From a virus: DNA of 64,000 nt. The notes beneath the pieces were generated by a model, which searched no databases, had not been told where the DNA came from, and saw nothing but the letters and a program-made list of their open reading frames with translations. Location of the stretch: the IMG/VR virus record IMGVR_UViG_3300045988_078326; one strand, written 5' to 3'. The position numbers and the translations under genes were made by a program. Below are positions 18,314 through 53,549 of this stretch, in pieces; within the stretch, counting starts at the first letter, position 1; each line of letters starts with the position of its first letter.

Positions 18314-18348
18314 AAAAAAAATGGGGAACTCTTAATTGAGTTCCCCAT
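18314..18348 (-). terminator. bidirectional rho-independent terminator at the convergence of the + early and - late units
   Basis: Perfect 11-bp inverted repeat atggggaactc / gagttccccat with a 6-nt loop. It is flanked by an A7 run, which reads as U7 on the minus strand. It overlaps the stop codon of the minus-strand gene. Confidence 0.6.
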
Positions 18349-18658
18349 CCTTCTTTAAACGATTGAAAATTGAGTTAGTCATATTTATTATCTCTTGACC
18401 ATAAGTTGCTATCAAATCTGCTAGCAATTCCTCTTGTTCAAATGATAATTCTATCCCATAACTAAACATTGCAGCGTGTGTTAATTCATGACATAAAACT
18501 TTTTTCATCATCGTTGAAGATAATTCTTCATTGATATAAATACCTTTAGTTTTGCTATCGCAAGCTCCTATTGTTAATTGACCATCACTTCTAATTAACA
18601 TAGGATGAATAGGAGAAGTTAAGAATAATTTCCATTCTTCTCCATTTATATTAAGCAT
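18332..18658 (-). CDS. ImmA/IrrE-family (DUF955-like) zinc metallopeptidase
   Basis: 108 aa with HExxH in VLCHELTHAAMFSYG. Confidence 0.5.
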   Translation of the reverse strand: MLNINGEEWKLFLTSPIHPMLIRSDGQLTIGACDSKTKGIYINEELSSTMMKKVLCHELTHAAMFSYGIELSFEQEELLADLIATYGQEIINMTNSIFNRLKKDGELN

Positions 18659-19253
18659 GGTTTAAAGAAGATATTTTTGTAGCAAGAGCAGAGATCTTTT
18701 TCTCTAGGAGCTGTCTTTCTTCTGGACTTGCATCATCAATCATTTCTACTAAATCCTCACTTAATTCTTTCATATATTTGTCCAATTCTCTAATTTTAGT
18801 ATCCTTGTCTTTATGCAATTCTTTTGATTCCATATACATACGACGAGTAATTGGACTGCGGCCTTCGCGAGAATCTCTTAGTTCCATGGGATATTCTCTT
18901 TCGTTGTAATAGATTGGTTTTTCTCCATATCCTTTACGACTACCTGACATATCCTCCATGTATCTGCCTTGAGAATCTCTAGAGCGAGGATAATACATTC
19001 TGCCCCAATCGTCTCTATCCATATCTCTATCTGGAAGATAATATGGTGGCATCATTGGGATGTAATATTTCTTATGTTCCTCTTCTTTCTCCTCCATTGC
19101 CTTGACAATAGAACAGTAATACATCGCCTGTTCTAAGTCTTTTATCATATCAATAACTTCGCCTAATTCATGGGTATCTACATTATGAATATCGCTTAGC
19201 TATGATTGAACACATCCAATAAGAGTTTCTTTCATATGTTTAAGTCTTTCCAT
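18651..19253 (-). CDS. Tyr/Arg/Asp-rich low-complexity protein of unknown function
   Basis: ATG 19253 with RBS AAAGGGTGG. One in-frame TAG at 19200-19202. Extends ORF 18651..19148. The repetitive region reads ...YYPRSRDSQGRYMEDMSGSRKGYGEKPIYYNEREYPMELRDSREGRS... Confidence 0.4.
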
Positions 19254-19303
19254 AATTAAGCCACCCTTTCAATAATTAGATTTGCGTTTTGGACGTCGAT
19301 TGC

Positions 19304-19678
19304 CTAAGTAGAAATATTTTTTACGGCAATTTCAAAACAACATCCTCTTGGTACATCAATAAATATAGAACTTGCTACATTATTGTAGTCTCCTACTGCT
19401 GGAGCTGTAGATATCATAGTAGTAGAAGCTACACCTTCTCCGTTAATAGCAATAGCTAAAGAAATTGGGCCTATTGTTCCACCTGCGGCGATCGCAATAT
19501 TGCCGCTAAAGTGAGCTTTATATCTAGCTCTACACTGAGTAGATGTATTACCTTTTAATGTTACTAGTCCACTCCCAACGCGGTGTAGTAGGCTGTTGGA
19601 GCAGCCTACTACCGCATCGGTAAAAAGGACATTCTGATTAGCTTGTACTGTTTGTACGGCATTCGCAATAATTTCCAT
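19304..19678 (-). CDS. C1q/TNF-like (BclA C-terminal-like) jelly-roll domain protein
   Basis: 124 aa. The pattern NVLFTDAVVG...GLVTLKGNTSTQCRARYKAHFSG...ISLAIAINGEGVAS...SSIFIDVPRGCCFEIAVKN follows C1q-domain spacing. Confidence 0.35.
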   Translation of the reverse strand: MEIIANAVQTVQANQNVLFTDAVVGCSNSLLHRVGSGLVTLKGNTSTQCRARYKAHFSGNIAIAAGGTIGPISLAIAINGEGVASTTMISTAPAVGDYNNVASSIFIDVPRGCCFEIAVKNIST

Positions 19679-19707
19679 TGAACCAAATCTCTCCTTTTAA
19701 TTTCTAA

Positions 19708-20613
19708 TTAGCACCCGCAACTATTCATGCTATAGCAGCAGTTGGGGTTTGGTACTACGTAAGCGGGAATTGGATTATCACGACCTAATCTGCGGATGAG
19801 CTCGGCAGTTTGAGCTTCCTGATTAGCTGTAATAAAGTTATTCTGAGCCTGTTGAGATGCGGCAAGACGAAGAGCCTGATTCTCGTTTTGCAAATCAGAG
19901 ATTTTCTCCTGGCAGAGATAATCGAGAATTGCACGAGTTCCAGCGTTCTGGCTATCAATAATATCACGAGTATTATTAGCCATAGAAGTTTGAAGCGCAT
20001 TTGTATTAGTTGCTAGATTGTAGTTGACGTCGGCAAAACCTCTCTCAATCTAACGACCAGTCTCGCAGCAGCAATCTGCAATTTGGCGAGAAATAGCATT
20101 TTGATTTGTGAGATTATCAAAGCTTGCTTGCTGAATTGCAGATTTAGTATCGCAGCAACAGTTAGAGAGCTGTGTAGCCAAAGCATTTTGACCCTGCATT
20201 AAAGCTACATTAGTGCTGTTAAATCCTTGCTGTGTCTAATATCCGAGATTACATACTGCATTATCAACTCCATGGAATCCATTAGTTAAAGCATTATTCA
20301 GAGCATAAGTGCTGTCACAGATTCCCTGTTGAATAGCATTAATACCAGACTGGAGATTTTGGAAAGCAAAACCTTCATTAATGTCTGCGCGAGTTGCCCA
20401 GCCTTGGCCAGAAGGGGAGCCTAAACCATTGCTATTAGCTCCGTATCCACCAAAGCCTCCGAATCCGTTTCCCCATCCAGAGAAGCAGAATAGGAATAGA
20501 ATTATAATCCACCAAGCTCCTCCGTCATTCCAAATTCCGCCGTTGTTACGCTCATTACCACCTGTAGCAGCGGCGATGTCAGCTAAAGAGTATCCATTGT
20601 TAGAATTGAACAT
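19708..20613 (-). CDS. Gly-rich, single-TM, Cys-cluster protein of unknown function
   Basis: ORFs 20236..20613 and 19708..19983 share a frame. They are joined by sense TAGs at 20236-20238 and 20050-20052, with no other stops. It has a Gly-rich N-terminus, a TM segment WWIIILFLFCFSGW, repeated NALTNGF/NQNAI segments, and CCC motifs (SNCCCDTK, ADCCCETGR, NPNCCYSMNSCGC). Confidence 0.45.
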
Positions 20614-20637
20614 TTAAGTTCCTCCTTTAAGAAAATA

Positions 20638-20871
20638 TTAAAGGCCGAGCATTTTCTTAAAGTCAGCAAACTCCTTGTCATAGTCTAATCCTCTTTGGGA
20701 TAAAAGATTTCTAGCTATTTGTTCTATCTCTTCTGTTTTATTCTACTTGGCAAGATCTAACAAATTAGCTCCAAACGGATTATTCCCCATCTAGCTTTCT
20801 AGCATATTTAAAGTTAGTTGCTGAGGATTCTATCCATTCCTAATCATTTGAATTAACTACATTGGATTCAT
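20638..20871 (-). CDS. small hypothetical protein (about 77 aa)
   Basis: RBS GGAG 8 nt before ATG 20871. Two sense TAGs. Ends at TAA 20638-20640. Confidence 0.4.
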
Positions 20872-20883
20872 TTTATCGACTCC

Positions 20884-21309
20884 TTAAAAATCTAATTTTG
20901 GCTTTGATTCCTGCTATTGCGCTGTAGGCTACTTACTTGCCTATGGCGCAATTTTTTCTTTTAGTTGAGCAAGTACGGTTTCAAATTCTTCTCTAGTAAC
21001 ATACTGAGAAGGATTGACAACTGTTTCAACTGGAATATTCTTTAATTCATAAACATTAAGCGTTGAAGTTCCATCTAAATTTATCTATTTTGTATATATT
21101 TTTTTATTAGCTAAATCAGGAAAGAAAAATACAGAACCATCAAAGTCAATGCTAGTTGCCTTCACTTCTTCTATTGAAGAAACTGGGCGACCTTTAATTC
21201 CAATCTAGGGCTATTCCACATACTGCATCCTTTGTTGCGGTATATAAGGGACTGCCGCATACTAAGGCTGCTATTGTTGTGGCATATAGTATGGATAATT
21301 AACTGCCAT
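20884..21309 (-). CDS. Gln/Tyr-rich protein with very dense TAG usage
   Basis: RBS GGAGGTAAAACT before ATG 21309. Hand translation gives MAVNYPYYMPQQ(Q)QP(Q)YAAVPYIPQQRMQYVE(Q)P(Q)IGIKGRPV..., with about 9 TAG in roughly 140 codons and no TAA or TGA until 20884-20886. Confidence 0.45.
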
Positions 21310-21357
21310 AGTTTTACCTCCTTTAAAATATTCCCTTGGCCTTTCATTATTATATGA

Positions 21358-21407
21358 AATTTTGGCAAAGATAATTTTACTATTTTGCCAAAATTTTTGC
21401 CAATTTT
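21358..21407 (-). promoter_or_regulatory. promoter/operator region A with three copies of a TTGGCAAAA / TTTTGCCAA-type motif
   Basis: tttggcaaag (21361-21370), ttttgccaaaa (21383-21393) and tttttgccaatttt (21394-21407). On the minus strand this reads as TTGGCA, an 18-nt spacer, then TAAAAT upstream of the gene at 21309. Confidence 0.4.
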
Positions 21408-21416
21408 AGTGTAAAA

Positions 21417-21448
21417 ATATATAATGGGACATAGTAGTCCCATTATAT
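21417..21448 (-). terminator. rho-independent terminator after the holin gene
   Basis: Perfect 11-bp inverted repeat atataatggga / tcccattatat, followed on the minus strand by a U-run. The right arm overlaps the holin stop. Confidence 0.45.
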
Positions 21449-21837
21449 CATGATAGTCTGTGCTCATTAACAGCAGCTTCGATAAGGTTAGTTAAATAAG
21501 TATTTAAGTCACCAGTTGTCTCGATAATATACTGTTTTGCATCACTAGAAAGGATTTCCAATACAGAGTTCATAGTCTTATCAAATGCAATTTTCTATGC
21601 CTCTGCATCAAAAGCACCCTGTTCTTTTAAGCTATCTACATAGGTTTGATTTGTTGCTATTACACACTTAGTAATAGTATCAAATATCATAGTAGTATAT
21701 TTCTGAGCTGTTTCATTCTCTGTTTTAGAATTTAACTCATCTCGTTTTGCAGAGAGGAAATCTACGAGATATTTTGTTAGAATACCAAGCAGAGGAAGAA
21801 TACAAAGCTAGAATATTTGAATAACAATTTCAGGCAT
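21448..21837 (-). CDS. holin (LL-H / Firmicutes phage holin-like)
   Basis: RBS GGAGGAATTAAT before ATG 21837. N-terminal TM is IVIQIF(Q)LCILPLLGILTKYL. C-terminus is ...IETTGDLNTYLTNLIEAAVNEHRLS. Two sense TAGs. Ends at TGA. Confidence 0.5.
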
Positions 21838-21924
21838 ATTAATTCCTCCTTTATATTATATATAAAACAAGAGGAAGATGGTTTAACTTTATTTGACCTG
21901 CGGATTTCCATTCAAACGATCGTT

Positions 21925-22512
<588 letters not shown>

Positions 22513-22541
22513 CTTTATCACCTCATAGATATATGAAAAAA

Positions 22542-22585
22542 TGGCAATTTTATATAACAAAAATTGCCCAAAAATTTGGCAATTC
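22542..22585 (-). promoter_or_regulatory. promoter/operator region B with three copies of a TGGCAATTTT-type motif
   Basis: tggcaattttat (direct), aaaattgccc (inverted) and tttggcaattc (direct). Together they form a 26-bp imperfect palindrome GGCAATTTTATAT|AACAAAAATTGCC. It lies upstream of the recombinase and resembles region A. Confidence 0.4.
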
Positions 22586-22638
22586 GGCGTTTTGATTTAT
22601 ATAAAATTTTATTATATAATATATAAAGAAAGTGAAAA

Positions 22639-22890
22639 TTACCAGGGATAATCTCTTGCAATTAAAACATTACCTTTGGGCATAACAAAATACATTTTGC
22701 CTTGTCCAAATGAATAATCCACGGAACTTCCATCCTCTAATAAATAAAAAGAATCTGAAATACCTGGAGATATATTTTTACCACTATAAACTATCTCTCC
22801 TGGAGATGCTCTTAATGGGAATTCATATTTAAAGCCTGACTTATCTATTATAGAATATCTTTCCGTTTGAGCGCTTGAATTAAAAATCAT
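22639..22890 (-). CDS. hypothetical protein
   Basis: 83-aa ORF with RBS GGAGGTAGTAGAAA. Confidence 0.4.
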   Translation of the reverse strand: MIFNSSAQTERYSIIDKSGFKYEFPLRASPGEIVYSGKNISPGISDSFYLLEDGSSVDYSFGQGKMYFVMPKGNVLIARDYPW

Positions 22891-23287
22891 TTTCTACTAC
22901 CTCCTATAAAATAATATACAGTCGTATACTATCAGTTGGAGTTATTAATGCTTTAAAAGTTAATTCATCCAATCCTTGATTAATACATAATATCCCAGCA
23001 TTAAAATATACTTCTTGAGATTCAATAGTTGGCATTACATAAATTAGCTATTTGCTTTCATCTGCGAGTACACCTGGAACCATTACTGTGCAGGTGTCAT
23101 CAGACCATTCAGATTCAAGAATAGCAATAAGTATAGCCTTCGGTTTAAGAGCTGTATTTGCTAAAATTTCATTAAATTCTTGTTCAGTTCCAGTAAACCC
23201 TCCTTCTTTAGCTGTTTCATAAGCAGACTTTCCATTGAGACCGGGCTGACCTATTCCGGCTACTTTCTTACCATTTATTTTAATCAT
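22880..23287 (-). CDS. small tail-fibre protein with collagen-like GxxG segment and SAYE...GF.GTE motif
   Basis: ORF 23048..23287 is (MIKINGKKVAGIGQPGLNGKSAYETAKEGGFTGTEQEF...). It continues through a sense TAG to about 22880. RBS GGAGGTAAATATAT. The low-coordinate end is approximate. Confidence 0.45.
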
Positions 23288-23308
23288 AATATATTTACCT
23301 CCTAAATT

Positions 23309-23951
23309 TTAATTACTACTTCCACCACCGCCAGAAGTAATTGTAGCAGAGTCAATAATTTTATATGCTATAACTTGACTATTATTATTTATCTGTATAG
23401 CACCTAATGCTTTGTATGCAGACTAAGGAGTAATTTTAAGTCCTGAAGAAGAGCCGCCGTTTATAGTTAAAATACTATTTTTTATTACTTTATAATTATT
23501 TTTCTACACTACCCATACTGACATTGGTGCATTTTCATGTTCTATTATTACTGTGCATCCACTTACGCCTGATAATGATTCAAATGTAATATCTACTGTT
23601 TCTATTGGAGTTTCAGTCTCAATTTGACTTATATTTTCTGCCATCTATTGAAAGCTATCGGTCGCCGCAGTTTCTATTCCCTTGTCAGTGACTGCGGTCG
23701 CTATTAGGGTTTTGCCCTCACTGACATCTGTAAAAAGTTCATCTATGGCCTCCTAAACATTGGTAGCGGCCATGCTCGAGGTGCTATTGTTATACTCTAT
23801 CAACGATGCAGTTAGACTTTCATTTTCTTCTTCATCAAATTCGATAGTGTAAGGTCCAACTCCCAAAGATTCTCCCATTTCTGCAATACCACCGCCCGGC
23901 ACAGTAATGGCATCTTTGTTCTTAACCTATCCAGTTAAAATACATTCCATG
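23309..23951 (-). CDS. tail-fibre N-terminal-domain protein
   Basis: RBS GGAGAAATTTTC before ATG about 23951. Hand translation gives ...TASLIEYNNSTSSMAATNVQEAIDELFTDV..., the NVQ.A.DEL motif common in Firmicutes phage fibres. Ends ...SGGGGSSN with TAA. Several sense TAGs. Confidence 0.45.
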
Positions 23952-24267
23952 AAAATTTCTCCTTTCATTTTTAAAAAAGTACACTTTACTGAACTTGGTC
24001 AAACATATATAATCAATCTATACTCTTTTTCAAGTATATTTGAAAAGAGTAAGATACTCACTTTTGGGAAAAGGGTTTCTTACCCTTTTCCCAATTTTTT
24101 GTTATCTAGGAAGAAAAAGTATTTTTCCTGTTAAAAAGTGTACTTTTTCTCGGAAATTGTTTATGGCTTTCTAAAAGACTGGAGCGAAGATCGCTTCCAT
24201 CCTCGACCTTCTATCTAGTAGTTTAGATTTGTTTGAAACAATAGCTAGATAGAAGGAGGTAAATAAT
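23952..24267. promoter_or_regulatory. divergent control region between the minus-strand fibre/lysis unit and the + strand retroelement island
   Basis: Direct repeats aaaagtacacttt (about 23977) and aaaagtgtacttttt (about 24133). Perfect hairpin gggaaaagggt/acccttttccc (24066-24092) followed by a T6 run. Inverted repeat ctatctag...ctagatag (24211-24254). RBS GAAGGAGG before the target gene. Confidence 0.4.
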
Positions 24268-26034
24268 TTGCCTAAATGTATTTTAGCTGAATAGGGTGGA
24301 AAAGGTGGAGGTTCTCTTTCTCTTGTAAAAATTGAAGTAACCACTCCCCCTACTAAAACGAGCTATCTTGCTGGTGATACTTTTAATCCCGCGGGAATGG
24401 TAGTCACCGCATCTTACGGCGTGGACGGCGTTATTGTAACAACAGCAGAAGTAACTGGGTATCAAGTTACTCCAAACCCTTTAACTGATGGGGTTACTAA
24501 AGTAACAATTACTTACTCTGAATCAGGAGAAACTTGTTAGACCACTCAAGACATTACTGTTATTCATAAACTTCTTAGTATTTAGGTTACTACTAACCCA
24601 ACTAAGACAACTTATGAATATGGAGACACTCTCCAAACAACAGGAATGGTAGTTACAGCAAGTTATTCTGATAGTACATCATCCGCGGTTACCGGGTATA
24701 GTTGCTCTCCAACGTCATTAACTGCGGTTGGCACCTAGAAAATTACTGTTTCTTACACAGAAAATGGAGTAACTCAGTCTGCTTCTTTCAATGTTACTGT
24801 TGAAAGAAAATCGGTGCCGAAACCAACATGGAAGAATAATCTTACCTATACTGGTAGTAGCCAATCAGTAAGTGGTGCTTCCTATTGGAATAACTTTAAT
24901 ACCACTTATATGACGATTGGCGGGACAACTTCCGCGACTAACGCTGGAACCTATACTGCTACTTTCACACTAAATAGTAATTATAGATGGGCCGATGGAA
25001 CTACATCAAATCTTGATGTAAACTGGACTATCAATAAAGCTGCTGGGACTTTAACAGTAAGTCCAACTTCTGTAGCTCTTGATGGAGATAACTATAGTGC
25101 AGGCGTAAAAGTTACTATTACCCGTCCTGGAGATGGAGCTATTAGTTATAGCCCAACTAGCGTTTCTGGCTTAACTTTATCTTTAAGTGGGAACGTTCTT
25201 ACAATTAAAGGCGACGGTAGTACAGCTATTTCTTCTACAACTATTACTATCAAGGTTGCAGCAGGAACTAACTATACGGCTCCAAGTAATAAAACTGTTA
25301 CAGTAACAGCTAGCTATTGGGAGTGGGGATCTGAAACTGCTGTTGGTGATGCTAAATGGTGGGCTGGATTAAAAACATGGGCCGCTAAGGCATCATCTGG
25401 AGAGCGACAAAATTGCGTAGGTAAGACTAAAAGAGTAAGTTTATCATCTTCTGTTTTAGGTGGTAATCAAGTATTAATGAGATGCGTTGGCGCAGATTAG
25501 GATGGAACAGGAACTTTAGCTTTTAATGCTGTCTCCGCTCTTCCTAATTCTACAGATTTTGGTAGCAATGCAATATGGATTGGATCAACTGCTAGAGATC
25601 TATGTCAAGATTTCTATAACCGCTGTAGCGCGAAAGATTCTATTAAGACAGTAAAGAAGGGTACTTGTCCTAGTACAAATAGCTCTAGAAATGGTTCTGT
25701 AACCTATAATGATGAAACAGTATTCTTATTATCCGAAAGAGAATACGGATTAGATTCTTACTCTCCTATCTCCACTTCAAACAGTACTACCTCTAAAGCA
25801 GAGTGTACTCAAGGTTATAATGCTGCGTATAGTTACTACACAAGCAACTCTAGAAGGGTTATGTACTTAGGAGATGCAAACGGTAATCCAACTAGCTCAT
25901 ATGTGTATCAATGGGAGAGGTCCCGTTACTACAACTACTCGTACAACGTTTGCTATGTCGACACCGATGGTTCTGCGAACTACACCGGCTACAACATCAG
26001 CCGTGGGCTCGCGCCGGCTTTCGTTATCGGATAA
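24268..26034 (+). CDS. retroelement target protein: Ig-like (Big) repeats plus C-terminal C-type-lectin-fold domain carrying the variable repeat
   Basis: TTG 24268 after GAAGGAGG. The frame is continuous through sense TAGs (24292, 24538, 24583, 24736, 25498) and contains ORF 24814..25500. Repeated domains read VTT(N)PTKT.Y..GDT....GMVVTASY. The C-terminus ...ECTQGYNAAYSYYTSNSRRVMYLGD...YNYSYNVCYVDTDGSANYTGYNISRGLAPAFVIG ends with TAA at 26032-26034. Confidence 0.8.
25919..26017 (+). repeat. retroelement variable repeat
   Basis: 99 bp aligned without gaps to the template repeat. All 14 mismatches lie at template adenines. Ends in the GC-rich box gggctcgcgccgg, 15 nt before the target stop. 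Confidence 0.9.
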
Positions 26035-26115
26035 CACAATAAAATAACAATTCGGGACAGTTAAGATTAAATTGTCCAACTAAAATTTTATATATTCAAG
26101 TGAGGGAGATTTTAA

Positions 26116-26610
26116 ATGTCTGTAAAAGTAAAAGATAGACACATATCAAAGCAAGATTGTCTTTATAAAGCACGCGACTTAATGGGATATATTTTAGTCT
26201 TAACTCGTCCTAGAGAATATGATAAGGATGGAAAACAAATTTGTAAGCCTGGACTGCTTGGAGAGGGTCAACCTCTTCAAGCGTTCGGGTACGATATAAT
26301 TAAGTGCGGAAAGGGCTTACATGCTTGCTGTTATGAGGCATGTAAGATAAACTTGAAAGACAAAGAAACCCTTGCAAAGAGAAATGACTATCATAATAAA
26401 GCACTAGAATATTGTGATAGTATATTTCGACAAATCGACCTATGTATTTATTAGTATGCTCAGAACAGCAAAAAGAAAAGACGCTCTTTTGAACATCTAG
26501 CTAGATTGACAAAGAGAGTAAAAGAGTCAATCCAAGATAGAAAAAATAGAGATAAACTTATAACAGAGCATAGATATTCAGCTCCTAAGAGATATAGGAG
26601 AGGTCGATAA
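26116..26610 (+). CDS. avd: putative accessory variability determinant (Avd-like)
   Basis: About 164 aa from ORF 26116..26454 extended through sense TAG 26452-26454 to TAA 26608-26610. Basic C-terminus. It sits between the target and template repeat, as avd does in canonical cassettes. Sequence similarity to Avd is not clear by eye. Confidence 0.35.
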
Positions 26611-26641
26611 TATTTTTCTACGGTTAAGTTCTGTATCTTTC

Positions 26642-26740
26642 GGTCCCGTAACTACAACAACTCGAACAACGTTTGCAATGTCAACAACGATGGATCTGCG
26701 AACAACAACAACTACAACAACAGCAATGGGCTCGCGCCGG
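26642..26740 (+). repeat. retroelement template repeat
   Basis: ggtcccgtaactacaacaactcgaacaacgtttgcaatgtcaacaacgatggatctgcgaacaacaacaactacaacaacagcaatgggctcgcgccgg. It is AAC-rich, and the variable repeat differs only where this repeat has A. Confidence 0.9.
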
Positions 26741-27051
26741 ATTAGATGGAGCTATCATGTTGCGAGTTAAGCTGCGGAGCAGCGCAAACGAGCAACGCCT
26801 AAATAGTACCCCGGAGTATATTATTATCCATCTAATTAAGGTTTACTCTGGATTGCACTCACTTTATGTGGGGAAGAGATTGAGAGACCATTAAAGAGCT
26901 TTGCTCTACAACTATCGAATAATATACTATAGGTAGATCTGCCTTTTCATCTAAGGAGAACTTAACCATTTCACTGAAAAAGTGGATAAAGTAAGACTGT
27001 AGACGTGGAGCTCGAGTAGCTACCACTATAGCTACATGATAAGGAGAAAGT

Positions 27052-28176
27052 ATGTCTGAAATAAAACAAGATACTGCTTTCGAGCGTTTTTGTAGTTTTG
27101 ACGCTATGTATGAGGCGTCTTATAAGGTATGTCGAAACGTTCGATGGAAAGATAGTACAATTAATTTTGGAGAGAATAGGATAGAAACAATTTTAAAAAC
27201 AGAAGCTGACCTGCGAGCGTGTGAATACGAACAGCTTGTGTTTAGTTGTTTTTCGATAATCGAACGAGGCAAACCAAGAGATATAAGAGCGTGTCATATC
27301 AACGACAGACTGGTACAAAATGCGTTATGTGAACAAGTTTTGCTACCAGAATTAACTCCTAGATTTATCTATGATAATTGTGCAACCCTAAAAGGAAAGG
27401 GAATAGACTTCGCTCTGGAAAGAGTTAAGAAACATCTCCAATAGGCTCATAAAGAGTATGGGTTAGGAAAAGATTTTTATGGATTAAGAATTGATATACA
27501 GAAATATTTTGATTCTATTGACCATGAATCTTTAAAGAAAGCAGCTAAACGGCTAATAAAAGATAAACTTGTTTATTAGTTATGTTGTTACTTGATAGAT
27601 ACATTTTCTTTTAAGCTAACAAAAGACACTTCGCCTATACCCGGTAAAATATATTACACAAGTAAGCGACACAAGTATGAAAGAGTTAATGTTACTCATT
27701 TCTAGCCTGGTCGTAAGTATTATGAATATGAAAGAAAGAGCCTGGGATTAGGAAGTCAAACGTCACAATTATTCGCATTGCTAGCATTGAACGAAATTGA
27801 CCACTTCATAAAAGAAGAGTTACATATTAAGTATTATGGTCGTTATATGGATGATTTATACTTGCTCCATAATGACAGTAAATACTTGGCCGAATGTGAG
27901 AAACAAATAGAAATTCGCTTAAATAAACAAGGATTAAAGATGAATAAGAAGAAAACTACTATCACTAGAATTTCTCCTATTCACGCAGATGGCGAACGCC
28001 ACGCTCCTTTTAAATATTTAAAGTGGAATTTTCATCTCACAGAAACTAATCATATAATACAACTTCCTTTCAAGAAAAAAGTAGCTCATCAGCGCAGAAA
28101 ACTAAAGAAAATGTAGGCTTTATGGTTAGATAATAAAATTTCAACTGAAGAAGTTTAGAAATCTTATTAGGGCTGA
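27052..28176 (+). CDS. retroelement reverse transcriptase
   Basis: ORFs 27052..27444 and 27778..28116 share a frame and are joined through sense TAGs. Reverse-transcriptase motifs 1-2 sit in the N-terminal part, plus YYGRYMDDLYLL (YMDD). It continues past TAG 28114 to TGA 28174-28176. RBS AAGGAGA. A hairpin gtagcta/tagctac lies just upstream. Confidence 0.85.
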
Positions 28177-28268
28177 AGGGCGCATATTTCTAAAGGAACT
28201 TGCTTTTATATAATTCAGGACATGGACAATTATTTTCGTTCATTATTCAAAGGAGTTGAAATAAAGTA

Positions 28269-28931
28269 ATGTATATTCTATTAAATAGAGAGAATATAGT
28301 AGTTGATATTCTTTCAGAAGCACGTTACATTAAACTGCAATCCTCAAATGGTATTGTCGTTGCCTGCGAGGAAGAAGAGGGAACTGGGGTTATCGGCTCA
28401 GATAGTGATACTCATTACACTCTAGTCAAAGCCGATGTATTAAATCAACCTAATGCTGTTACAGTATTAGAGTTGGAAACAATTCCATCAAACGTCATTC
28501 CTAACTATTCAAAGTATAATCAAGAAGATGGTACTTTCATCGCTGATTTAGATTAGGCAAAATATGATAAACAAGAGGAAAACAAGAAACTATTCGCAGA
28601 GTATCTTGCTACCCACCCGTTAACTTGGGTCGATGGAAAAGAATATGGAATTACGTAGGAGGACCAATCTGAGATTAGCTTAAATCTCAATCAATTCTAG
28701 GTGGCTGTAGCTGCTGAAGTAGAAAATCCTACGCTTGAGTGGCACGCTCGACACGAAGAGTGTGTACCATGGACTTTAGAGCAATTATCCGCTCTAAGTT
28801 TAGCTATTTCTAATGCGGTATATCCAAAATACCACTTAATGCAAGAATATAAAACCTAGATATTTGGAGCTAATTCAATAGATGAATTAAAAGCTATTGA
28901 ATTGAGTTATGAAGACACAGACAGCGAATAA
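28269..28931 (+). CDS. hypothetical protein
   Basis: ORF 28269..28556 continues through several sense TAGs to TAA 28929-28931 (about 220 aa). Confidence 0.4.
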
Positions 28932-29367
28932 AAATATAATTCTATTCGTAGTAGGAGGAACTCTATATTACAGTATAGAGTTCCTCTATAAAACTTTTAT
29001 TAGCCTTGGAGTTTGTCATTGGTCTATGTTTTTGCTAGGTGGCTTATGCTTTCTATTAATTGGACTAATGAATGAGAATATTCTTTGGGAAGAATCTATC
29101 TTAACTCAAGGAGTAAAAGGATCTTTAATTATAACTGCTTTAGAATTAATTTTTGGATTAGTTTTAAATATAAGACTAGGTTTAGGTATTTGGGATTATT
29201 CTAACATTCCACTTAACTTTATGGGGCAGATTTGCTTGCCCTTCTCTATTGCATGGTTCTTCTTGAGCCTTTTAGCAATAGTGTTAGATGATTACCTTAG
29301 ATGGAAATGGTTTGGAGAAGAAAAACCGCATTATCACTTATACAGTAGACCTCCTTGCGAGGAATAA
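28909..29367 (+). CDS. polytopic membrane protein
   Basis: 152-aa ORF with 4-5 predicted TM helices. Confidence 0.45.
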   Translation: MKTQTANKNIILFVVGGTLYYSIEFLYKTFISLGVCHWSMFLLGGLCFLLIGLMNENILWEESILTQGVKGSLIITALELIFGLVLNIRLGLGIWDYSNIPLNFMGQICLPFSIAWFFLSLLAIVLDDYLRWKWFGEEKPHYHLYSRPPCEE

Positions 29368-29421
29368 AAAAAATAGGGAGAACCTTAATTAAAAGGTTCT
29401 CCCTATTTTTTTTTTATTTTA
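29366..29421. terminator. bidirectional rho-independent terminator
   Basis: Perfect 14-bp stem atagggagaacctt/aaggttctccctat, preceded by an A8 run and followed by a T10 run. It separates the + island from the minus-strand fibre gene. Confidence 0.65.
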
Positions 29422-30196
29422 CATCAATAATAACAATAGCAATATCGCTTTCTGGTTTATCTTTTGTGTAGAAAGTGATTCCAGATCCTACAGTTGCATC
29501 AGCATGATCAATTTTACTATATTCCTCTAAATTAGAAGTATAAGTAATGATAGGTGGCACATTTCCCGCTTTTCCGCAAGTTAAAGCAGTATTAGAGTAT
29601 GTCTATGTATACATATCTCCGTTCAATACCCATGATGCCGCGGCAAGAGTGGTTGTATAAGCTACAGATGTGCTACCAGTAATTTGGTTATCTGTTTCTG
29701 ACTTGCTATATACATCCAAATTAGTTCTGGCTCGCGCGGCTGTCGTGCCTCCAGTTCCTCCAACCTAGATTGGAAGTGTACCAAATGTAGGTGCACCCGC
29801 AGTAATCGCGTATAAAGCACCAGCACCTTGTAAACCAGCCACACCATTTTCCGCATTTCCGATTACTAAACTGCCGGCTGCAATTTCAATCATTTTTAAT
29901 GCTTCTGTTCCATTTCCTACTAGCAAAGCATTAACAGTTAATGTATCATGTCCAGTTCCACCCTACGCTACAGTAGCAGTCATATTTTTAAGAAAAATGT
30001 CGTCAATATCAATTTCAGTAACATTATTCTTTAAAACTTGAGCAGCATAGGCATTGACCTGTAGACGTCCGCCCTCTATATTACTTACATCAATAAATAA
30101 ATTTCCTGTGTCCTCGCAGAAATAGGCGTATCCTTCATGAAGAGGTACATCATTAAGATCCTCTTCTGCGCCTTTAAAAATCTTAAATAAAGCCAT
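29414..30196 (-). CDS. tail-fibre protein with GGTG..TAA.AR.NL motif
   Basis: ORF 29963..30196 (MALFKIFKGAEEDLNDVPL...) continues through sense TAGs to TAA 29414-29416. It contains ...PIQVGGTGGTTAARARTNLDVYSK... Confidence 0.5.
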
Positions 30197-30229
30197 TTTA
30201 GGCCCTCCTTTATACTCTCTAAATATAAA

Positions 30230-32140
30230 TTAAGGTATTAAATCACTAAAACTTCCCCAAGATAGTAATTCTTCAATCTATGTTGCAGAATATGTCTATC
30301 TATCCTTATTTGTAATAGTTCCACCTATTAAGCTATTAATATAGTGAATACTGTAAGTTTTATTTGTTACTTCTCCACCATCTTCACTATTATAACTATT
30401 ATCAATAAGGTTAGAAATACCGCCAGTTAGCTAGACTCTTCCCCACACTCCATCTGCGGCTTTATAATACCAGTAAGAAGTTTCTTGGTTAGTTTCATAT
30501 TCTACCCACGTAATAGAGAAAATATCCTACGCGCTAATTTCTCCATCATAGTTTTCTTCAATATAATCTACACCATTCTATAAAGAATCTTTTAGCGTGT
30601 CTGTCTCATTTATTGTGTAGCTCTTAACGATATTAAGAGCCTCGCCAACAGGGCCTTTTAAATTGCCGGAATTTTTCTCCCATATACCAGAAGAATTTAA
30701 TTCATATATATCTCCGGTTTCTGTATTTAAATATAAATCTCCAGCTTTCGCACCCTCAATAACAGTAGATGTTGTTGAATCAGAAATCTAAGTTCCAGAG
30801 TATAATTTTGATCCTCTAGGAATCTTAAAATCAATATTTATAGTGTCATCTGCTGTAATTTCATTGGATACAGAGCCAGTTTCGTCAATTCCAACAAAAG
30901 CAAATGAAGTAGTGTATTTAACCGCGGATGGCAGCCCAAAAACTAGCTTCCAGGCAGTTTGTTCTTCGTTAGTAAACTCCCTTGTAACCGTAGGAATTGT
31001 CGGCTCAAACTCAGAACCTTTATCTGTATATGGCTTTAATTCTGTAACTTCTATAGTAGGAAGAGGAGACTAAATACAAGCTATATACTAAAAAGTACAA
31101 GTGGTTCCAGTTTTATTGATTACTTTATAAATAAAACCGGTTGGTGCATTAATGTAATAATCACCAACATTATAATCCACAAAAGAATCATTAGTTTCTT
31201 CGTAAGTTCCTTCTGTTCTCTCGCCTAGTAACTCGCCATAGTAAAATTTAACCGCTTCTGGTAAACTAAATTTCAATACTGGCGCATTAATATTCGAATC
31301 ATCCATTACTACAGATGGATTCTCCTCGGGTCCCACTACCGTAGTTTCTGGATCTCCCATCACCTAACTTTGAGGCAAGAAGAAATTAATAATTGGATTG
31401 TTTATATCATCAAAATTTATTTCAAATCTAGGTTTTTCATTAGCATCTAAAGTTGTAGTAATACCTTCCTATAATGACTAAGATACAGGTAGATAAAACT
31501 TAATTGCCGGTTTGTTGATAGAATAATCTCCTGAAACTTCTAAAGATACTCTTGGATTTTCACCTACATCTAATAATTCTACTAATGCAGTATTAATTAC
31601 CTAAGATTGCGGTAAGGACAACTTTAAGCTAGGATTATTTATATCGGTCGTGTCTAAAGACGCTTCTGGAAGTTCATTACAATCCAGAATAGTAGTCTCT
31701 CCTAACTAGATATTCTAACTCTATGGTAACTGAAAAGTAAGCCAAAGTCTATCTAGATCGGTATTATCCCAAACCACGTTTGGATCTTCATCTGCATCCA
31801 AGACTTCTGTGTCATTTAAGCTAATTCTTGGTGTATTACCAGTCATGGAAGCTATCATCTTATAGTATAGGCCGCCCGCAGATCCGCTTCCATCTTTATC
31901 ATTATAACATTTTTGCCAAAGAGTAGAGTTATAGCTTTTCCCATAATTCTATAAATCTTCATTCTTATAAATATCATAGTTTGTATCGCTTGGCAAACCA
32001 TATGATACAACAACGAGATCACCTGGGAAGATAGAAGATGTCCAACCCTTTGATAAATCTCTATCCATCTAATATTTGCTAGTAAAGATTTCCTTAATAT
32101 CAAAATCTCTACCTTTAGGTCCTCCATAGAAACTTTCCAT
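30230..32140 (-). CDS. large tail fibre / baseplate repeat protein (about 636 aa)
   Basis: RBS GGAGGTGTCAAACT before ATG 32138-32140. Same frame as ORF 31088..31363. Repeat units ...LKLSLPQSQ / KFYLPVSQ / NFFLPQSQ / KFSLPEAV occur. Ends at TAA 30230-30232. Many sense TAGs. Confidence 0.45.
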
Positions 32141-32154
32141 AGTTTGACACCTCC

Positions 32155-34666
32155 TTATACATAGATAAAATCAATAATAACATTATACAAATCCTAATAG
32201 TTCTCTGGAGCATCAATATTATCAGGATTGGGTAACACATATATACCGTTTACACCCTAATTATACAAACTTAATGCTGTCTAATAAGCCTCTATATAGG
32301 TAGTCTAAATATTATTATATGAATCCCAGTAAGCTCTATATCCCTCTGGATCTGTATCCGGGTCTGGCATAACTGGATTTTCTTTATAAAATTGTTCCAA
32401 ATCGTCTGCTCGTTTTTTATCCGCAGCCTACATTCCTTCAGTTCCCTACTCAATCGCCTACTAGGAGGCTTCTTCATCTTTTTCATACTTTCTAGGTCTA
32501 ATAAAATACATATTAGTAATAGCTATGTCATCATCTAGTTCATATATTCCAGTTCTACCAACCATAATAGTCTTTGATTCATTCATAACTATTTTTGTGC
32601 CGGCAGGAGCCTATACCCCAACTTTATTAAATTGAGAGGCTCCTACCTAGGCAATAATATCACTAAATATATTCTACCCACTAGAGACGTAGCTACCACT
32701 GTTATTATCTATTACATTATAATATACTTGACCAACAGTTGGCATTATCTCCTACTCCTCCTTATACTCTCGTTAATACTTCCGTTGCAGTAATGCTCAT
32801 AGTTCCATTATAAGCAAGAGGCAAAGTAAACTGAGTTATCTAGTAATTTCCACTAATGCCGCTATCTTTATCTTCAATATAGAGAATATTATTTGGCTCC
32901 ATATAATACTTTGGTAAGCAAGTAATAGATATGGTTGTATTATAATTTAAATTCTAATACAACATTTCTCTAATCTTATCAAAACAACTCGCATTAGTAG
33001 AGCTTATTGAAAATAAATCATAGTATTCAGAAGTAAGAACAAAAAATCTCTAACCTATCCCTCGATATTCTGCTATCAAGTCCTAATCAAGTCCTTCAAT
33101 AAAAATAATATCAGGGGCTTCCATATTATATACGGAAGTTATATCAGAACCATTAACCACTTTAGTCCTTCTGCCTATTTCATTTATTGAATATTTTCCC
33201 ATCTCTGAACCCGTATCTATAAAATCTAACCAATAGTTCAAATTTTCTGGATTGTTAAAAACATCAGGGTTCCAATGATCGTATTCATCCCATTTCTCAT
33301 TCAATGGATCATATAAATTACGCCATTCCGCGATTAATTCGGAATCATAGTAGTTATCATATACGCTATTAGTTACCTGCGCATTTAATGCTCTACGGTA
33401 CAGCTCTTCTCGCCACTCATCACATGGAGACCCGATTAATTTTGTTTCATATCCAGATACAGAGTAATCACTAGCTATATTATTAAAATCATATCTTACT
33501 ATTAGTCCAGTTTCTTTATCACTAATAGCCCACATATAATACCCAGCCAAATCTATAATAGGTTTGGTATCAATAGCTAAATGGTATCTAATGTCCACTT
33601 CTACATCAGATGTAGTTTTTCTTTTACCCCAAACATAAAAATCATTTTTAATATTATCAAACTTTGGACTGCGGGTTATCGCAGTCGTGGTATCAAGCTC
33701 GGTTAAAGAATATAAGAATTTAGCATTATTATAACTCTTTACATAGTTTGCTGGCGTAAGTTCAGTTAAAGGGCTTCCAGTATTAAGATAGTTCTTTATC
33801 TCCTAAAAGATAAAACGACCGTTTATATCATAGAAATATTCAAAATTTCCAAGAACATCCACTATCTTATCTAGTAATGCAGTTACAGTATCACCAGCAT
33901 CTAAAATCAATTCACCGGGATATGTAAATTCTGTTTCTTTATATCCAGCATCCTATCCATAGCTTACCATATGCGGGAAGTCTGAGCTGGGAGAGAAATC
34001 CATACTCTCATAATTATTACTAAAATATACTGGTTTGTCACCAATATACTTAACCAACATTTTACAGGTTTCCTCTATATCTGTAATAATTATATTCTCT
34101 ATAGCTTCCCCTCCCCAGTGGTTTACCGCTTCATATATAATCTGGAATATGGTCGGATATACAATCTCTATATCTCCATCATTCTTCTATATGTAACTTT
34201 CATGGAGGGTAATAGAACCTGGAAAGGTACCTCCCGCAGTTCCATCTAATAAACACATCTTATCTTTTCCATTTATAGAAATTGTCCATCCAGAAGTCGA
34301 TCTTGCTATTGATGCATTAGACAAGACAAATAGTCCGCAAGGAAACCAAATTATATCTCCATAACTAGAATAAGATCTTAAGGGGTTATTATATCCAACA
34401 AACACTTTAACCTTTTTGTTTATCGAAATCTCGTTATCTATATTCTCTATATCGCTATTATTTCCATCGGCTAGCATAGTTAAACTAATTGTTCTGCGCA
34501 CTGAAGATGAACCATTAACACTTAAACTTCCTGCTGTTATGCGACCTTGTATCTCTCTAATAGGTTTTTCATCGAAAGAAAGCAAAATAATTTTCGCATA
34601 ATGGGTTTTAATGTTTAACTTATCAAGGGCAGTAAGAAATTCCATATCGTTTAAATAATCAAACAT
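32155..34666 (-). other. tail-associated protein region (prophage-tail / Tal-like N-terminal domain); gene boundaries unresolved
   Basis: ORF 34187..34666 (MFDYLNDMEF...DIIWFPCGLFVLSN...) and ORF 33083..33598 share a frame. The 3' end near 32155 lies in another frame, so this span holds one or two genes. Confidence 0.35.
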
Positions 34667-34670
34667 AATA

Positions 34671-37448
34671 CTATTCCACCTTCATACGCATTTGATTTGT
34701 TAAACACTTATAGTTTATTACACAGAATTGAGCGCTTTCTAGAGCGATATATTTAATCATATTATCCAATGGGTTAAGTGTATATCTCCCTGTGGGACCG
34801 ATTTTTACAGTAATAGGATTACTTCCATCAGCATTTGAGCTAAGAAGAATAGTAGTTCCTTCGTCTGCTTCTATATCGAACAAAGTAATATCACTAAAAG
34901 TGTAATAAATCTCTCCGTCTGTTAGCTGTCCATCGCTACTTAATTCAAAGTGTGTATTATATATAAGCTCAACTTGCTTTTGTGTCTCTTCTTTTATTAT
35001 CTCGTAGATATTTACCGTTTTATATAGATTAAAAGTCGTATTATCAACAATAATATCTCCTTGTTTATCCCTAACTAGAAATTTTTCCATATTCGCAGGA
35101 ACATTACTAAATATGCGATATGTGTCACTATTCTTATAATCATAGTTATAAAACTTTAAAACACCATCTGTTCCTGTAAATATTCCAGAAATCTAACCCC
35201 AAATACGAGAAGCATCAATAGCAGAAACAACTCCCACTGAAACATCTTCAACCTAATTTAACTGACAAACATAATTCACAATAATAGGAACTGTTGATGC
35301 AGATAGAGATAGAGAATTAACATTCTCACTTAAATGATACATTCTACCTGGTGCAACTAAGATCCTTGAACCATTAACATTAATTTCAATAGTCGCAGAT
35401 TCAGGCCCATCAAGAGCAAGAATTAAATTTTCACATTCCTCAATCTATCTATCATACTCAGAAGTATCTTCTTCATTACCTGCGGCTTCCGCTCTAAGAG
35501 CTTCTAATTCTAGTAGCTACGCGGTTAGATCTATCTTTGGGTATTGTTCAACTAGGATATCAGTAACCTAAACTAAGTTTAGTTTATACCCTCCACCTAT
35601 GCTAACCTCTTCCTATTCTCTTATCTTTGCGTATAAGTCTATATTTCGACCATAAATTCCGCTTATCTGCCCAAAGGAATTTATTCTATCTTCGCTTGCT
35701 AAACTCTCAAATTCACCAATATCAATTATATTAACTTCATTTAAATTTTCTATGGTGTTCTCTAATACTTCATATGCCGTAGCAGAAAAAGAATAGAGCA
35801 TGCGGCCGACCGTATTATTCGGAGTCAAAGAAATATTAAGCAAGCCTATAACTATATTCCCTTCGGTTGGAGACTTAAATAATTTATAGTTAAAATCATT
35901 TAAAAATTCTTCTACCTTTTCTCTAAAAGCTCTTTCAATGAAAACATTATCATCTGTTAAATCAGTTGAAATAGATAATTTACTCTCATTAGTTGAGACT
36001 TCTGAATGAGTTGTCTATCTCTCTTGACATTTTCCTCTAACCACATTTTTGATAGTAAACTTATCTTCTGGGATTGCAAGTTTGCCATTATAATAAAGGC
36101 CATCATCATCTAGAGAGAAGAATGTCTAATATTCATCCATCTAAAAACTAATCAAACCAGAAATAGGAAATTCTGCATAGTAAGCATTACCATTCTAAAT
36201 TAAATGAGGGTATTTATCTCCTAAAGTATCCTATTTACTTCTTAAAGTGGTATGTTTAAAGCTGGATAAGGTTTGATTGAGTGATAGTTTTAACTATACT
36301 CCATCTCTATAAATATAGCTGTGCTCAAAATCAACACTACGACCTTGGTTAGAGGTTTCATATACCTAGGAAGTCCGCAATCCTGCGGAGTTCTCTTGCT
36401 ATATAGCGTATTTGTATCTAATTCCGCTTTCAATAATAAAATCGGTATAGATTAGTGAATCGTTCAAAACCTAATTAGAAAATTTAAGATACTTCAAATC
36501 TTCCCATATCTAATAATTATCTTTCTCTGAACTTCTAGTTATTACATAACTTCCACTTAATCCATCTTTTGCTGTGCAAAAAATCTTTATACAACCATTC
36601 TCTTTGCAATATATATCGCTATCTTCAACTCTTATAGATACTCCTTCTAAATCACCTAGATAAGTTCGACTAACAGAAAAATTATACTAATCAGACTCTC
36701 CCTCATAACCATTGACGGTAATAATAGAGTACACAACAGTATAATCTTCACTATTAGTTAATACTGTTTTAAATCTATGAGTATCTGTATTATTAATAGA
36801 GCCATTATGCTAGATCCACCCAGAGCTTTCGATTAAATCACTGAGATCCTACGAAGAACCTTTGTATAAATCAAATTTATATTTATCCAATAATTCATTA
36901 CTACTAGATTCAATCTTGTAACTGCCAATAAATAGCGGTGTTAAAGTTGCTTCTACTCGTTCTGTAGATATAACATCTTCTCGCTTTGCCTCGTCGTTTT
37001 CTATAATAATAGTCGGAGTATCTATCGCTTTAATTACCATTACAGTAGACCATTCAGAGAAAGCTCCTTCATCTATTTGCTATTGTTTCCATGTTGCAAA
37101 TTCATCTACCGAGGTATACATAGGATTAATTCCAAAGCGCATCTGCACTTTATATAAATACCCTGGCTACCAAGATTCGAACAATTCATTTTTATTGATT
37201 GATACAAAATACTAATTGCCCAGGGAACCAATAGCAGAGGGTGCTTTATAGATTGTCCCATCTGGGTATTGATTTGTATTAACAATGCTTTTATTATTCG
37301 ACTAACGCACTATTCTTACCTATATATGTCCTATATCATTAAAAGATGTAATTGACTGTAAGGTAAAATAGATTTGATATACATTCACACTGGCTAGAAA
37401 CGCTGGCTATGTGCTCTACAGAGTAGGCGGGTAAATACTAATTGGCAT
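34671..37448 (-). CDS. large baseplate / structural protein (about 925 aa)
   Basis: RBS GGAGGCGTTAACT before ATG about 37448. ORFs 36849..37040, 35613..35843 and 34671..35090 all lie in this frame and are joined by sense TAGs, with no TAA or TGA. Confidence 0.5.
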
Positions 37449-37536
37449 AGTTAACGCCTCCTTTTTCTCATCTAAGATATTTAAAAAATCTTATATCATT
37501 AATAAAGATAATTGGCCAAAAGGCTGACGAGTTTTA

Positions 37537-37905
37537 TTCCTCGTCAGCCTCCACCATAAAGTATAGAATATTCATAACCTTTAAAGGAATATCATATCCC
37601 TACAAAATATCAATAGAAAAGGTAGCTAATGGAACGCTAGTATTTACAGCTAATAAGTTATTTAGTTCTTTATTCGCCGCGTCTCTTTTCTCTTCTGGGA
37701 TTGAATAAGTAATATCGTCTACTTGTTCTCCATACCTTTCAATAATTTTCTTGCGCTCATTATAAATATCCTCAGCAATAGAAGAAAGAATTTTTAAATT
37801 TCTTATCACCGAATATGACACACTTGCGGGAAGGCATGATTGATCTTGAACTATATTACTTAATCCCTCGGTTATTTCTAAAATATCCTTGTTTGACATT
37901 TTCAT
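37537..37905 (-). CDS. hypothetical protein
   Basis: ORF 37600..37905 continues through a sense TAG to about 37537. Confidence 0.35.
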
Positions 37906-37930
37906 AATTAAAACTCCTTTTTCTCTTATG

Positions 37931-38666: not shown

Positions 38667-38679
38667 ATATAATCACTCC

Positions 38680-42600: not shown

Positions 42601-42624
42601 ATTCTTCCTCCTTTTACTCATAGG

Positions 42625-51351: not shown

Positions 51352-51388
51352 AGTCCTTTTCCTCCTTTATCTCTACGATAAAACAAAT

Positions 51389-51423: not shown

Positions 51424-51461
51424 TTAATTCTCTATCTAATTTGTAAATTTTATTAGATTTA

Positions 51462-53545: not shown

Positions 53546-53549
53546 TAGA

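Follow-up and report, generated by a model that had tools for sequence, protein, structure and literature searches.

Diversity-generating retroelements (DGRs) rely on a reverse transcriptase (RT) that copies the RNA of a template repeat (TR) with adenine-specific errors, after which the cDNA replaces a variable repeat (VR). Here we describe a DGR in a 64,000-nucleotide stretch of viral DNA (IMG/VR virus record IMGVR_UViG_3300045988_078326; the whole stretch is called the window below), whose genes form a plus-strand island with a short invertible element upstream. The cassette is built like that of Bordetella phage BPP-1 (mtd-avd-TR-brt). Both run in the order target, four-helix-bundle accessory protein, TR and RT, both show adenine-specific mutagenesis and carry a C-terminal VR with a GC-rich end, and in both a receptor-binding protein, a role that is predicted here, is encoded beside tail-fiber genes. 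The two differ in their targets, as ours combines an immunoglobulin (Ig)-like rod with DUF6273 whereas Mtd of BPP-1 consists of a β-prism, a β-sandwich and a C-lectin. They also differ in that here the Avd accessory protein is undetectable by sequence, TAG codons occur in frame, two genes follow the RT and the invertible element lies upstream.

Targets that combine DUF6273 with Big_3 domains have already been described for DGRs (PMC11792537, PMC10743442). With those of Faecalibacterium phages and prophages our target shares a VR at the C-terminus of DUF6273, Ig-like domains N-terminal of DUF6273 and, as far as can be predicted, an origin in phages of gut Firmicutes. Unlike them, it is embedded in a backbone distantly related to that of phage phAss-1 (35% portal identity), and TAG recoding, a common N-terminal tag and an invertible element are absent from both descriptions. 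The Tentaclin topology (PMC10743442), in which an N-terminal C-lectin with the VR precedes the Ig-like domains, is reversed in our target. The DGRs found in Zeta crAss-like phages (PMC12386605) likewise have RT genes with TAG codons, and some of their targets, read as tail fiber proteins, join Ig-like domains to a C-terminal C-type lectin. However, these phages have a Crassvirales backbone and Bacteroidota hosts and no invertible element was reported for them, whereas the window bears signs of a Clostridia-type host. Taken alone, the DGR is an ordinary addition to a known class.

To our knowledge, invertible elements (invertons) are well known in gut bacteria, while in phages they are almost confined to the coding-segment inversions of Mu and P1. 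The Mpi-dependent promoters of Bacteroides and the cwpV and flgB switches of Clostridioides difficile measure 150–230 bp, have short inverted repeats at their ends, contain a promoter or a terminator that depends on orientation and generate ON/OFF heterogeneity. The element described here is similarly short, bounded by inverted repeats and regulatory, but it lies in a lytic-type phage genome between divergent genes, holds both a promoter and a terminator and could select rather than switch ON and OFF. Like the Gin/G-segment of Mu and the Cin/C-segment of P1, it comes with a phage gene for a small serine recombinase, the presumed catalyst, beside tail-fiber genes, with short inverted repeats and plausibly with two virion types. 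The segments of Mu and P1 are ~3 kb of coding DNA that swap alternative fiber C-termini, whereas here a non-coding promoter/terminator cassette of ~160 bp lies between two divergent genes, both complete and outside the repeats. The arrangement of a constitutive-looking sigma70 promoter with an intrinsic terminator shortly downstream, in front of late structural genes, also recalls PR'-tR' of phage lambda, which is controlled by the Q antiterminator; the likeness is one of architecture only, as we found no Q-like protein or qut site here. Viral invertons other than those of Mu and P1 are only starting to be catalogued, and a survey from 2026 lists just 16 candidates (PMC13501310). We found no report that links a DGR to an inverton in the searchable literature, whose coverage is limited, and regard the novelty of this link as provisional.

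A recoded retroelement and its relatives

The window has a GC content of ~34% and resembles a phage genome. ORF calling with the standard genetic code broke up nearly all genes past ~18 kb, and the open reading frames (ORFs) used below are those obtained with TAG read as glutamine (Q), which replace the standard-code calls. With TAG as a sense codon, coding coverage between 18 and 64 kb rose from ~0.4–0.5 to more than 1.1 and the longest ORF grew from 931 to 2905 codons. In alignments with relatives of less than 85% identity, TAG codons of the window stand opposite Q at 763 of 1993 informative positions and opposite E, the second most frequent residue, at 263; Q is the best-supported meaning of TAG from ~18 kb onward. 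The early block (1-18312, plus strand), with nucleotide-metabolism and replication functions, mostly uses the standard code.

Minus-strand genes occupy 18332..23968 and 29414..64000, the latter encoding the portal, capsid-like proteins and tail proteins, and the plus-strand genes at 24229..29367 lie between them. The first-pass annotation had proposed such a plus-strand island among minus-strand genes, which is borne out, although its ORFs are intact only when TAG is a sense codon. We recovered every part of the unit that it listed, from the target, Avd-like gene and TR to the RT and the two genes that follow, and the recognizable fiber and tail genes, matched to PHROG families at 23309..23950, 29414..30196 and 32762..34666, are indeed all on the minus strand.

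The RT (27052..28176, plus strand) contains six in-frame TAG codons and matches RVT_1 (Pfam, 1.5e-16) and phrog_1423 (5.6e-76); its translation carries LGSQTSQ, which fits the DGR motif [LIV]GxxxSQ. Upstream on the same strand lie the VR (25919..26020) and the TR (26642..26743), which form a repeat pair. All 15 mismatches between them fall on TR adenines, of which there are 36 in 102 nt, an outcome expected by chance with a probability of ~2e-7. The VR ends 14 nt before the stop codon of the target, and both repeats share the GC-rich 3' end GGGCTCGCGCCGG, identical in the two and followed by divergence, as is characteristic of the initiation of mutagenic homing (IMH)-like stretch of DGRs. From this adenine-only pattern we infer adenine-specific copying by the RT and replacement of the VR.

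A search with the RT retrieved 40 IMG/VR loci with 58–91% identity. Every one of them has the target, the Avd-like gene, the TR, the RT and a DUF4376-like gene, and most also have the gene for a membrane protein. Summed over 29 distinct VR/TR pairs, TR adenines account for 471 mismatches and other positions for 26, of which 20 stem from a single mis-registered pair. The TRs of a clade hardly vary whereas each VR is different, and the target family exceeds 4,900 database members with very large clusters at 90% identity. Judged from these sequences, the island is a complete and currently active DGR. Many metagenome contigs of this phage group (L088-L095, L099-L101) stop just upstream of the Avd-like gene, within the VR or target, which is consistent with assembly breakage at a hypervariable site.

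The accessory protein encoded between target and TR (26116..26610, plus strand) has a basic C-terminus and gave no family match in Pfam, NCBIfam or PDB sequence searches. Its AlphaFold2 model (predicted local distance difference test, pLDDT, 87.7) is a four-helix bundle, and the top Foldseek matches in the PDB are chains of 2rld (probability 1.0, TMt 0.68-0.71, E 0.05), described there as 'S23 ribosomal protein family'. This is probably the 23S-rRNA-IVS protein family that includes bAvd, and we refer to the protein as Avd-like.

The target protein and its fiber neighbors

The target (24268..26034, plus strand) most likely starts at the TTG at 24268, which follows AGGAGG by 8 nt. It consists of an N-terminal tag (MPKCILAEQ), a Gly-rich linker, four Ig-like domains and a C-terminal DUF6273 domain that holds the VR. 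Pfam detected two Big_3 domains and DUF6273, and the structure was modeled with AlphaFold2 on a homolog (P0077) that is 67% identical to the target of the window. This model shows a disordered N-terminus of ~21 residues, four confidently predicted tandem β-sandwich domains and a C-terminal domain of lower confidence. The tandem Big-type Ig-like domains of the first-pass annotation are thus seen both in the Pfam matches and in the rod of the model.

Divergent from the target lies a variable fiber-like gene (23309..23950, minus strand) that matches phrog_26419 'tail fiber protein' (5.5e-13) and is swapped for unrelated fiber-like genes in other lineages. Its product begins with MECILTGQ and that of the target with MPKCILAEQGG, so that both carry a start-proximal tag of the form [K/Q]-C-[I/V]-L. 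A six-frame scan of the 64-kb window and of all loci found this tag in the target and in the divergent fiber gene of each locus and nowhere else. Since it is kept through synonymous and conservative codon changes, the tag is a feature of the peptide and not a DNA repeat; one clade has the variants K-A-I-L and K-V-I-L. The kinship goes further in locus L028, where the N-terminal 190 residues of the target are 54% identical (2e-56) to the neighboring fiber. GGTG repeats are common to the target and fiber of L028 and to the protein encoded at 29414..30196 of the window (2e-14). This last gene (minus strand; phrog_1591 'tail fiber protein', 2.3e-6) borders the island on the side of the structural operon, and the island is accordingly flanked by a fiber-like gene on each side.

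Within the island, the gene that follows the RT (28269..28931, plus strand) encodes a DUF4376-like protein, a putative fiber or adhesin chaperone that lies 3' of the RT in all relatives. The DUF4376 match of the window protein (2.6e-4) is below the Pfam cut-off, and five of eight orthologs match the family, the best at 6.9e-7; the protein also matches phrog_1348 'tail fiber protein' (1.4e-4). A profile search of the PDB with it returned nothing useful, and BLASTP found no paralog behind the leftward fiber genes. In Alteromonas phages DUF4376 is a mark of tail-fiber chaperones (PMC10579305). Finally, in loci L033, L037, L038 and L044 the cassette and the structural genes point the same way, and its placement on the opposite strand is thus a lineage-specific arrangement.

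The first-pass annotation had set the target outside the fiber system. This does not agree with the position of the island between fiber-like genes, the unique tag common to the target and its divergent fiber neighbor, the fiber-type N-terminal half of the L028 target, the DUF4376-type gene and the co-directional lineages. We conclude from the sequence comparisons that the target probably belongs to the family of tagged receptor-binding proteins of this phage, with an interchangeable shaft and a DGR-diversified head. The domain layout is evident from the searches and the model, and the target itself is likely attached to the virion.

The invertible intergenic element

The target and the divergent fiber-like gene are separated by 320 bp of intergenic DNA that is conserved across clades. 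Two 14-nt repeats at 23974..23987 (AAAAAGT-AC-ACTTT) and 24135..24148 (AAAGT-GT-ACTTTTT) are perfect reverse complements and have no further copy in the window. Their cores, AAAGT-AC-ACTTT (23976-87) and AAAGT-GT-ACTTT (24135-46), have the form of serine-recombinase inverton sites; the dyad, the asymmetric central dinucleotide and the adjacent serine recombinase gene fit site-specific recombination. The repeats delimit an element of ~160 bp with a non-coding interior of 147 bp, and their spacing is 159-161 bp in most relatives. They co-vary between loci and stay reverse complements, for example ACACCTT/AAGGTGT in L030 and GCACAC/GTGTGC in L044. We also considered the GTGTAC dyad as a general late-promoter motif and rejected this, as the window contains it at the two repeat sites alone.

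Inside the element, a sigma70-like promoter (P1, 23985..24013, plus strand; TTTACT-17-TATAAT, 10 of 12 positions matching) faces the target in the window. P1 and one weaker match that overlaps it, both on the plus strand, are the only sigma70-like matches in the 320-bp region, and the P1 hexamers are conserved across clades. Downstream lies a leader (24021..24100, plus strand) with two hairpins, at 24021-24051 and at 24064-24094, the latter an intrinsic-terminator hairpin with a 13-bp stem followed by T6 whose position is conserved in relatives. The leader folds with a minimum free energy of -30.9 kcal/mol (z = -6.4); RNAalifold gave weak covariation on a poorly registered alignment, and an Rfam search of the island returned only sub-threshold generic hairpins and no family match for the leader. 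The most conserved sequence of the element in all relatives is TTGGTCAA (TTG-GT-CAA, a dyad with an asymmetric center) at 23996-24003 in the P1 spacer, which could be a binding site for the recombinase or a regulator.

The cassette forms an autonomous plus-strand unit. Terminators had been proposed to bracket it, and this stands for one end. At the 3' end, a bidirectional intrinsic terminator (29366..29413; 21-bp perfect stem with A8 on one side and T8+ on the other) occupies the convergent junction with the minus-strand fiber gene. Its position is kept in relatives while the stem sequences of L008 and L030 differ, and the same convergent junction with different stem sequences indicates a genuine bidirectional terminator. 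A generic terminator scan was not enriched (11 found against 8.2 +/- 2.9 expected), but this hairpin and that at 24064-24094 were its strongest sites. The 5' hairpin, however, does not act as a boundary, as there is no plus-strand gene upstream of it and it lies inside the invertible control element. That the unit is separately regulated, as the first-pass annotation suggested, is probably right, though by a mechanism, the invertible element, that it did not foresee.

Inversion is visible in pairs of closely related contigs. Between L096 and L097 the flanks are 99.95% and 99.6% identical, while a segment of 175 bp is 100% identical on the opposite strand; the two come from sister samples, encode identical Avd proteins and were reached by separate sampling via Avd homologs. 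In a second clade, the alignment of L074 with L011 breaks into plus, minus and plus high-scoring segment pairs that overlap by 13 nt at the repeats, and a comparison with L009 agrees. The junctions in L074 and L097 thus fall at the repeats. A search for the predicted inverted-junction pattern matched two metagenome contigs (L074 and L075) and none in IMG/VR, where the normal junction matched 28 stretches. As read from these alignments, precise site-specific inversion occurs in at least two clades. Counting duplicate contigs, promoter and terminator face the target in 60 loci and are reversed in 2.

The candidate invertase is a small serine recombinase encoded 1.4 kb from the element (21889..22560, minus strand). 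It is heavily TAG-recoded and matches Pfam Resolvase (7.5e-31); among solved structures it is closest to Sin/Bin3 (2r0q, 7e-36), gamma-delta resolvase and Gin, and sub-threshold NCBIfam matches include XisF and the Mpi invertase family. From its family and location, this enzyme presumably catalyzes the inversion. In L021 the left repeat is absent and the recombinase truncated; this locus and L041-L043, discussed below, are apparent decay variants of the switch.

These observations can be brought together in one explanation, an active DGR that acts on an adhesin of the fiber family and is joined to an orientable promoter switch, which we favor with little more than even confidence. The RT would copy TR RNA with adenine errors, and the cDNA would take the place of the VR at the 3' end of the target gene. 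The encoded protein would be a virion-attached adhesin made of a K-C-I-L docking tag, a Gly linker, a rod of four Ig domains and a diversified lectin-like DUF6273 head. The element would act as an orientable late-promoter and attenuator cassette that aims one promoter at either of two genes: in the usual orientation, that of the window, it would drive the DGR operon, and when flipped the alternative fiber gene. With the same tag on both proteins, the switch would pick the receptor-binding protein on the virion and also decide whether the DGR machinery is made, and a population would yield virions with either a DGR-diversified adhesin or a fiber of fixed specificity. Two loci constrain how transcription can proceed. 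L028 has no more than ~25 nt between the repeats and the two start codons, which confines any promoter for either gene to the interior of the element. In L037 the ribosome-binding site directly adjoins the hairpin, and transcripts must therefore run through it.

Several results weigh against this explanation. Promoter and terminator flip together, so either gene needs regulated read-through or antitermination, and a Pfam scan of ten early-region proteins returned functions in nucleotide metabolism and recombination but no antiterminator or sigma factor. Inverted copies are rare in assemblies, at ~2 of ~40 distinct contigs, and L075, a fold-back at the same junction, may have arisen during library construction or assembly. 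L041-L043 retain the element, yet no recombinase is encoded within 2 kb of it, and the leftward ORF is short, at 63 aa (MSVKCVLQ...). On the side of the target, the C-lectin fold of the VR domain is modeled at low confidence only, and a tandem Ig rod with a disordered N-terminus is also typical of monomeric decoration proteins, between which and fibers fold searches do not discriminate. The most specific form of the proposal is that the inverton selects between the DGR operon, with its adhesin and mutagenesis machinery, and a hypervariable, horizontally exchangeable fiber cassette, that the tagged products compete for one virion site and that the DGR is phase-variable. We put this forward tentatively, as a possibility that falls well short of an even chance.

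Alternatively, the element may be a terminator switch of the cwpV/flgB type or an orientable small-RNA gene that controls only the leftward fiber cassette, or nothing, with the DGR transcribed from an unrecognized phage-specific late promoter. With a T-run on just one strand, the terminator is unidirectional, and P1 is always followed by it, which on its own would give a strongly structured RNA of ~80 nt. Moreover, the conserved TTGGTCAA and other blocks could bind a phage factor, and our promoter scan covers sigma70-like sequences only. Nevertheless, in L028 an external promoter would not fit on either side of the element, the scan detected no minus-strand sigma70-like promoter from the right repeat to the target, and P1 faces a highly expressed-looking DGR target in ~95% of assemblies. 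We consider this alternative unlikely.

Slightly less probable still is that the target decorates the capsid or tail in the manner of Hoc, or is a free adhesin for mucus or environmental ligands, and that the island is an accessory unrelated to fibers, a reading close to that of the first-pass annotation, which considered a separately regulated adhesin or a decoration protein. The four tandem Ig-like domains and the disordered N-terminus agree with such a role, as does the placement of the island opposite in strand to the structural genes in the window, and a Hoc-like function was proposed for a similar DGR target of a Faecalibacterium phage (PMC11792537). Fold searches bore out the Ig rod through matches to cadherins, S-layer proteins and RTX adhesins, but fold did not separate fiber from decoration. 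The best viral fold match, on the other hand, is a 'tail collar fiber protein' (1.8e-19). Despite the Ig tandem shared with Hoc, the C-terminus of the target is a DUF6273 domain with the VR, and its gene lies between fiber genes with a DUF4376 chaperone-like gene in the island. The tag common only to target and neighboring fiber gene, the fiber-type half of the L028 target and the co-directional cassettes of other lineages also speak against a decoration protein. In addition, targets that combine Ig-like domains with a VR have been reinterpreted as tail fibers by Roux et al. (PMC8144416).

Least probable of all, the inverted contigs could be artefacts or rare dead-end rearrangements and the repeats operators or arms of a long-range RNA helix in the leftward 5' untranslated region, a helix that compensatory repeat changes would equally preserve; while no inverted junction stands against the 28 normal ones in IMG/VR and fold-backs like that of L075 arise in amplification chimeras, we found two independent clean inversions in two clades with both junctions exact and flanks intact, one of them on a 155-kb contig, the 12-14-nt repeats are shorter than assembler k-mers, so that junction reads should exist, and both the site form and the adjacent serine recombinase fit site-specific recombination.

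Surrounding genes and the biology of the phage group

Left of the element, the genes beyond the tag are hypervariable and fiber-like, some with GGTG or 'SGGTMTG' fiber motifs. Two small genes of this cassette (22639..22890 and 22880..23287, minus strand) appear as ORFs with TAG read as Q and are not conserved in most relatives. In L010, a tagged fiber gene (5579-6949, minus strand) encodes a type I dockerin (PF00404, 9.2e-5) directly after its KCIL tag, which may point to Ruminococcus-like hosts that bear cohesins or to attachment through a cohesin. The DGR cassette, the variable fiber genes, the recombinase and the gene at 21448..21837 form a block whose orientation to the structural operon is reversed in some lineages (L033, L037, L038, L028, L044); the extent of the inverted block varies by lineage, and a larger block is inverted in L028 relative to the window. 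We found no convincing long-range inverted repeats in the window that could bound the whole 5.4-kb island or the ~8-kb block. Neither was retained as a dynamic invertible unit, and the block inversion between lineages looks evolutionary.

The island ends with a polytopic membrane protein (28909..29367, plus strand; PF06541, 4e-12) that has four hydrophobic segments and had been called an odd passenger. Related phages of ~125 kb (L078-L087) carry a 61%-identical PF06541 homolog at the same position after the fibers and before the lysis genes, without a DGR. Thus, the gene is a resident of the post-fiber locus and not specific to DGRs. In these phages it follows genes for NeuB, a cupin/mannose-6-P isomerase-like protein and a radical-SAM/SPASM protein at the end of the tail module, which looks like a phage-borne sugar-modification cluster, and it precedes the lysis genes NAGPA and Amidase_2+SH3. 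We also considered that the membrane protein avoids TAG and rejected this, since it is simply poor in Q, with a TAG fraction like those of the target and of the gene at 29414..30196.

Further left, a hairpin with an upstream A-run at 18314-18355, probably a terminator, marks the convergent junction of the plus-strand early block and the minus-strand block. Three other minus-strand ORFs lie between it and the recombinase gene. The first (18332..18658) encodes a small protein with an M78/IrrE-like metallopeptidase domain (7.6e-7). The second (19708-20613, 301 aa) is Gly/Asn-rich at its N-terminus and Cys-rich at its C-terminus (...NPNCCYSMNSCGC) and contains repeated CCC/CC motifs and a single hydrophobic segment; it is kept in all relatives, contains almost no TAG and has no family match. 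In the third (21448..21837) a hydrophobic helix at the N-terminus precedes a coiled-coil-like region; the protein is holin-like by eye and also lacks a family match.

The window appears to belong to a gut phage of roughly 147 kb that reads TAG as glutamine; related contigs reach 147-155 kb. A megablast of positions 20-33 kb against INPHARED phages gave no match. The portal shares 35% identity with its counterpart in phAss-1, a gut phage that reads TAG as Gln and has a predicted Clostridia host (PMC10607447). A host of the Firmicutes or Clostridia type is suggested by this portal and fits the strong Shine-Dalgarno sites of the window. ARAGORN found no tRNA genes in the 64-kb window, so any suppressor tRNA must be encoded elsewhere in the ~147-kb genome. 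Across orthologs, TAG density is 2.2 per 100 codons in the RT and 2.9 in the recombinase; with 2.2-2.9 per 100 codons, RT, Avd and recombinase are among the most TAG-rich genes. Since these genes are rich in in-frame TAG, their translation would depend on the late suppressor state, together with that of the structural genes. RT, Avd and recombinase would then be made only in the late recoded phase of infection.

Software for gene calling or DGR detection that assumes the standard code will overlook the whole cassette. A single host-recognition locus in an abundant group of uncultured gut phages would here layer DGR hypermutation, a site-specific inversion switch and stop-codon recoding. This raises the questions of when phages diversify receptor binding, of whether several receptor-binding proteins can share one docking site via a short tag, and of whether DGR activity and host range are phase-variable within phage populations. 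If our explanation is true, DGR hypermutation would itself be phase-variable, and each burst would hedge between 'exploring' virions and virions of fixed specificity.

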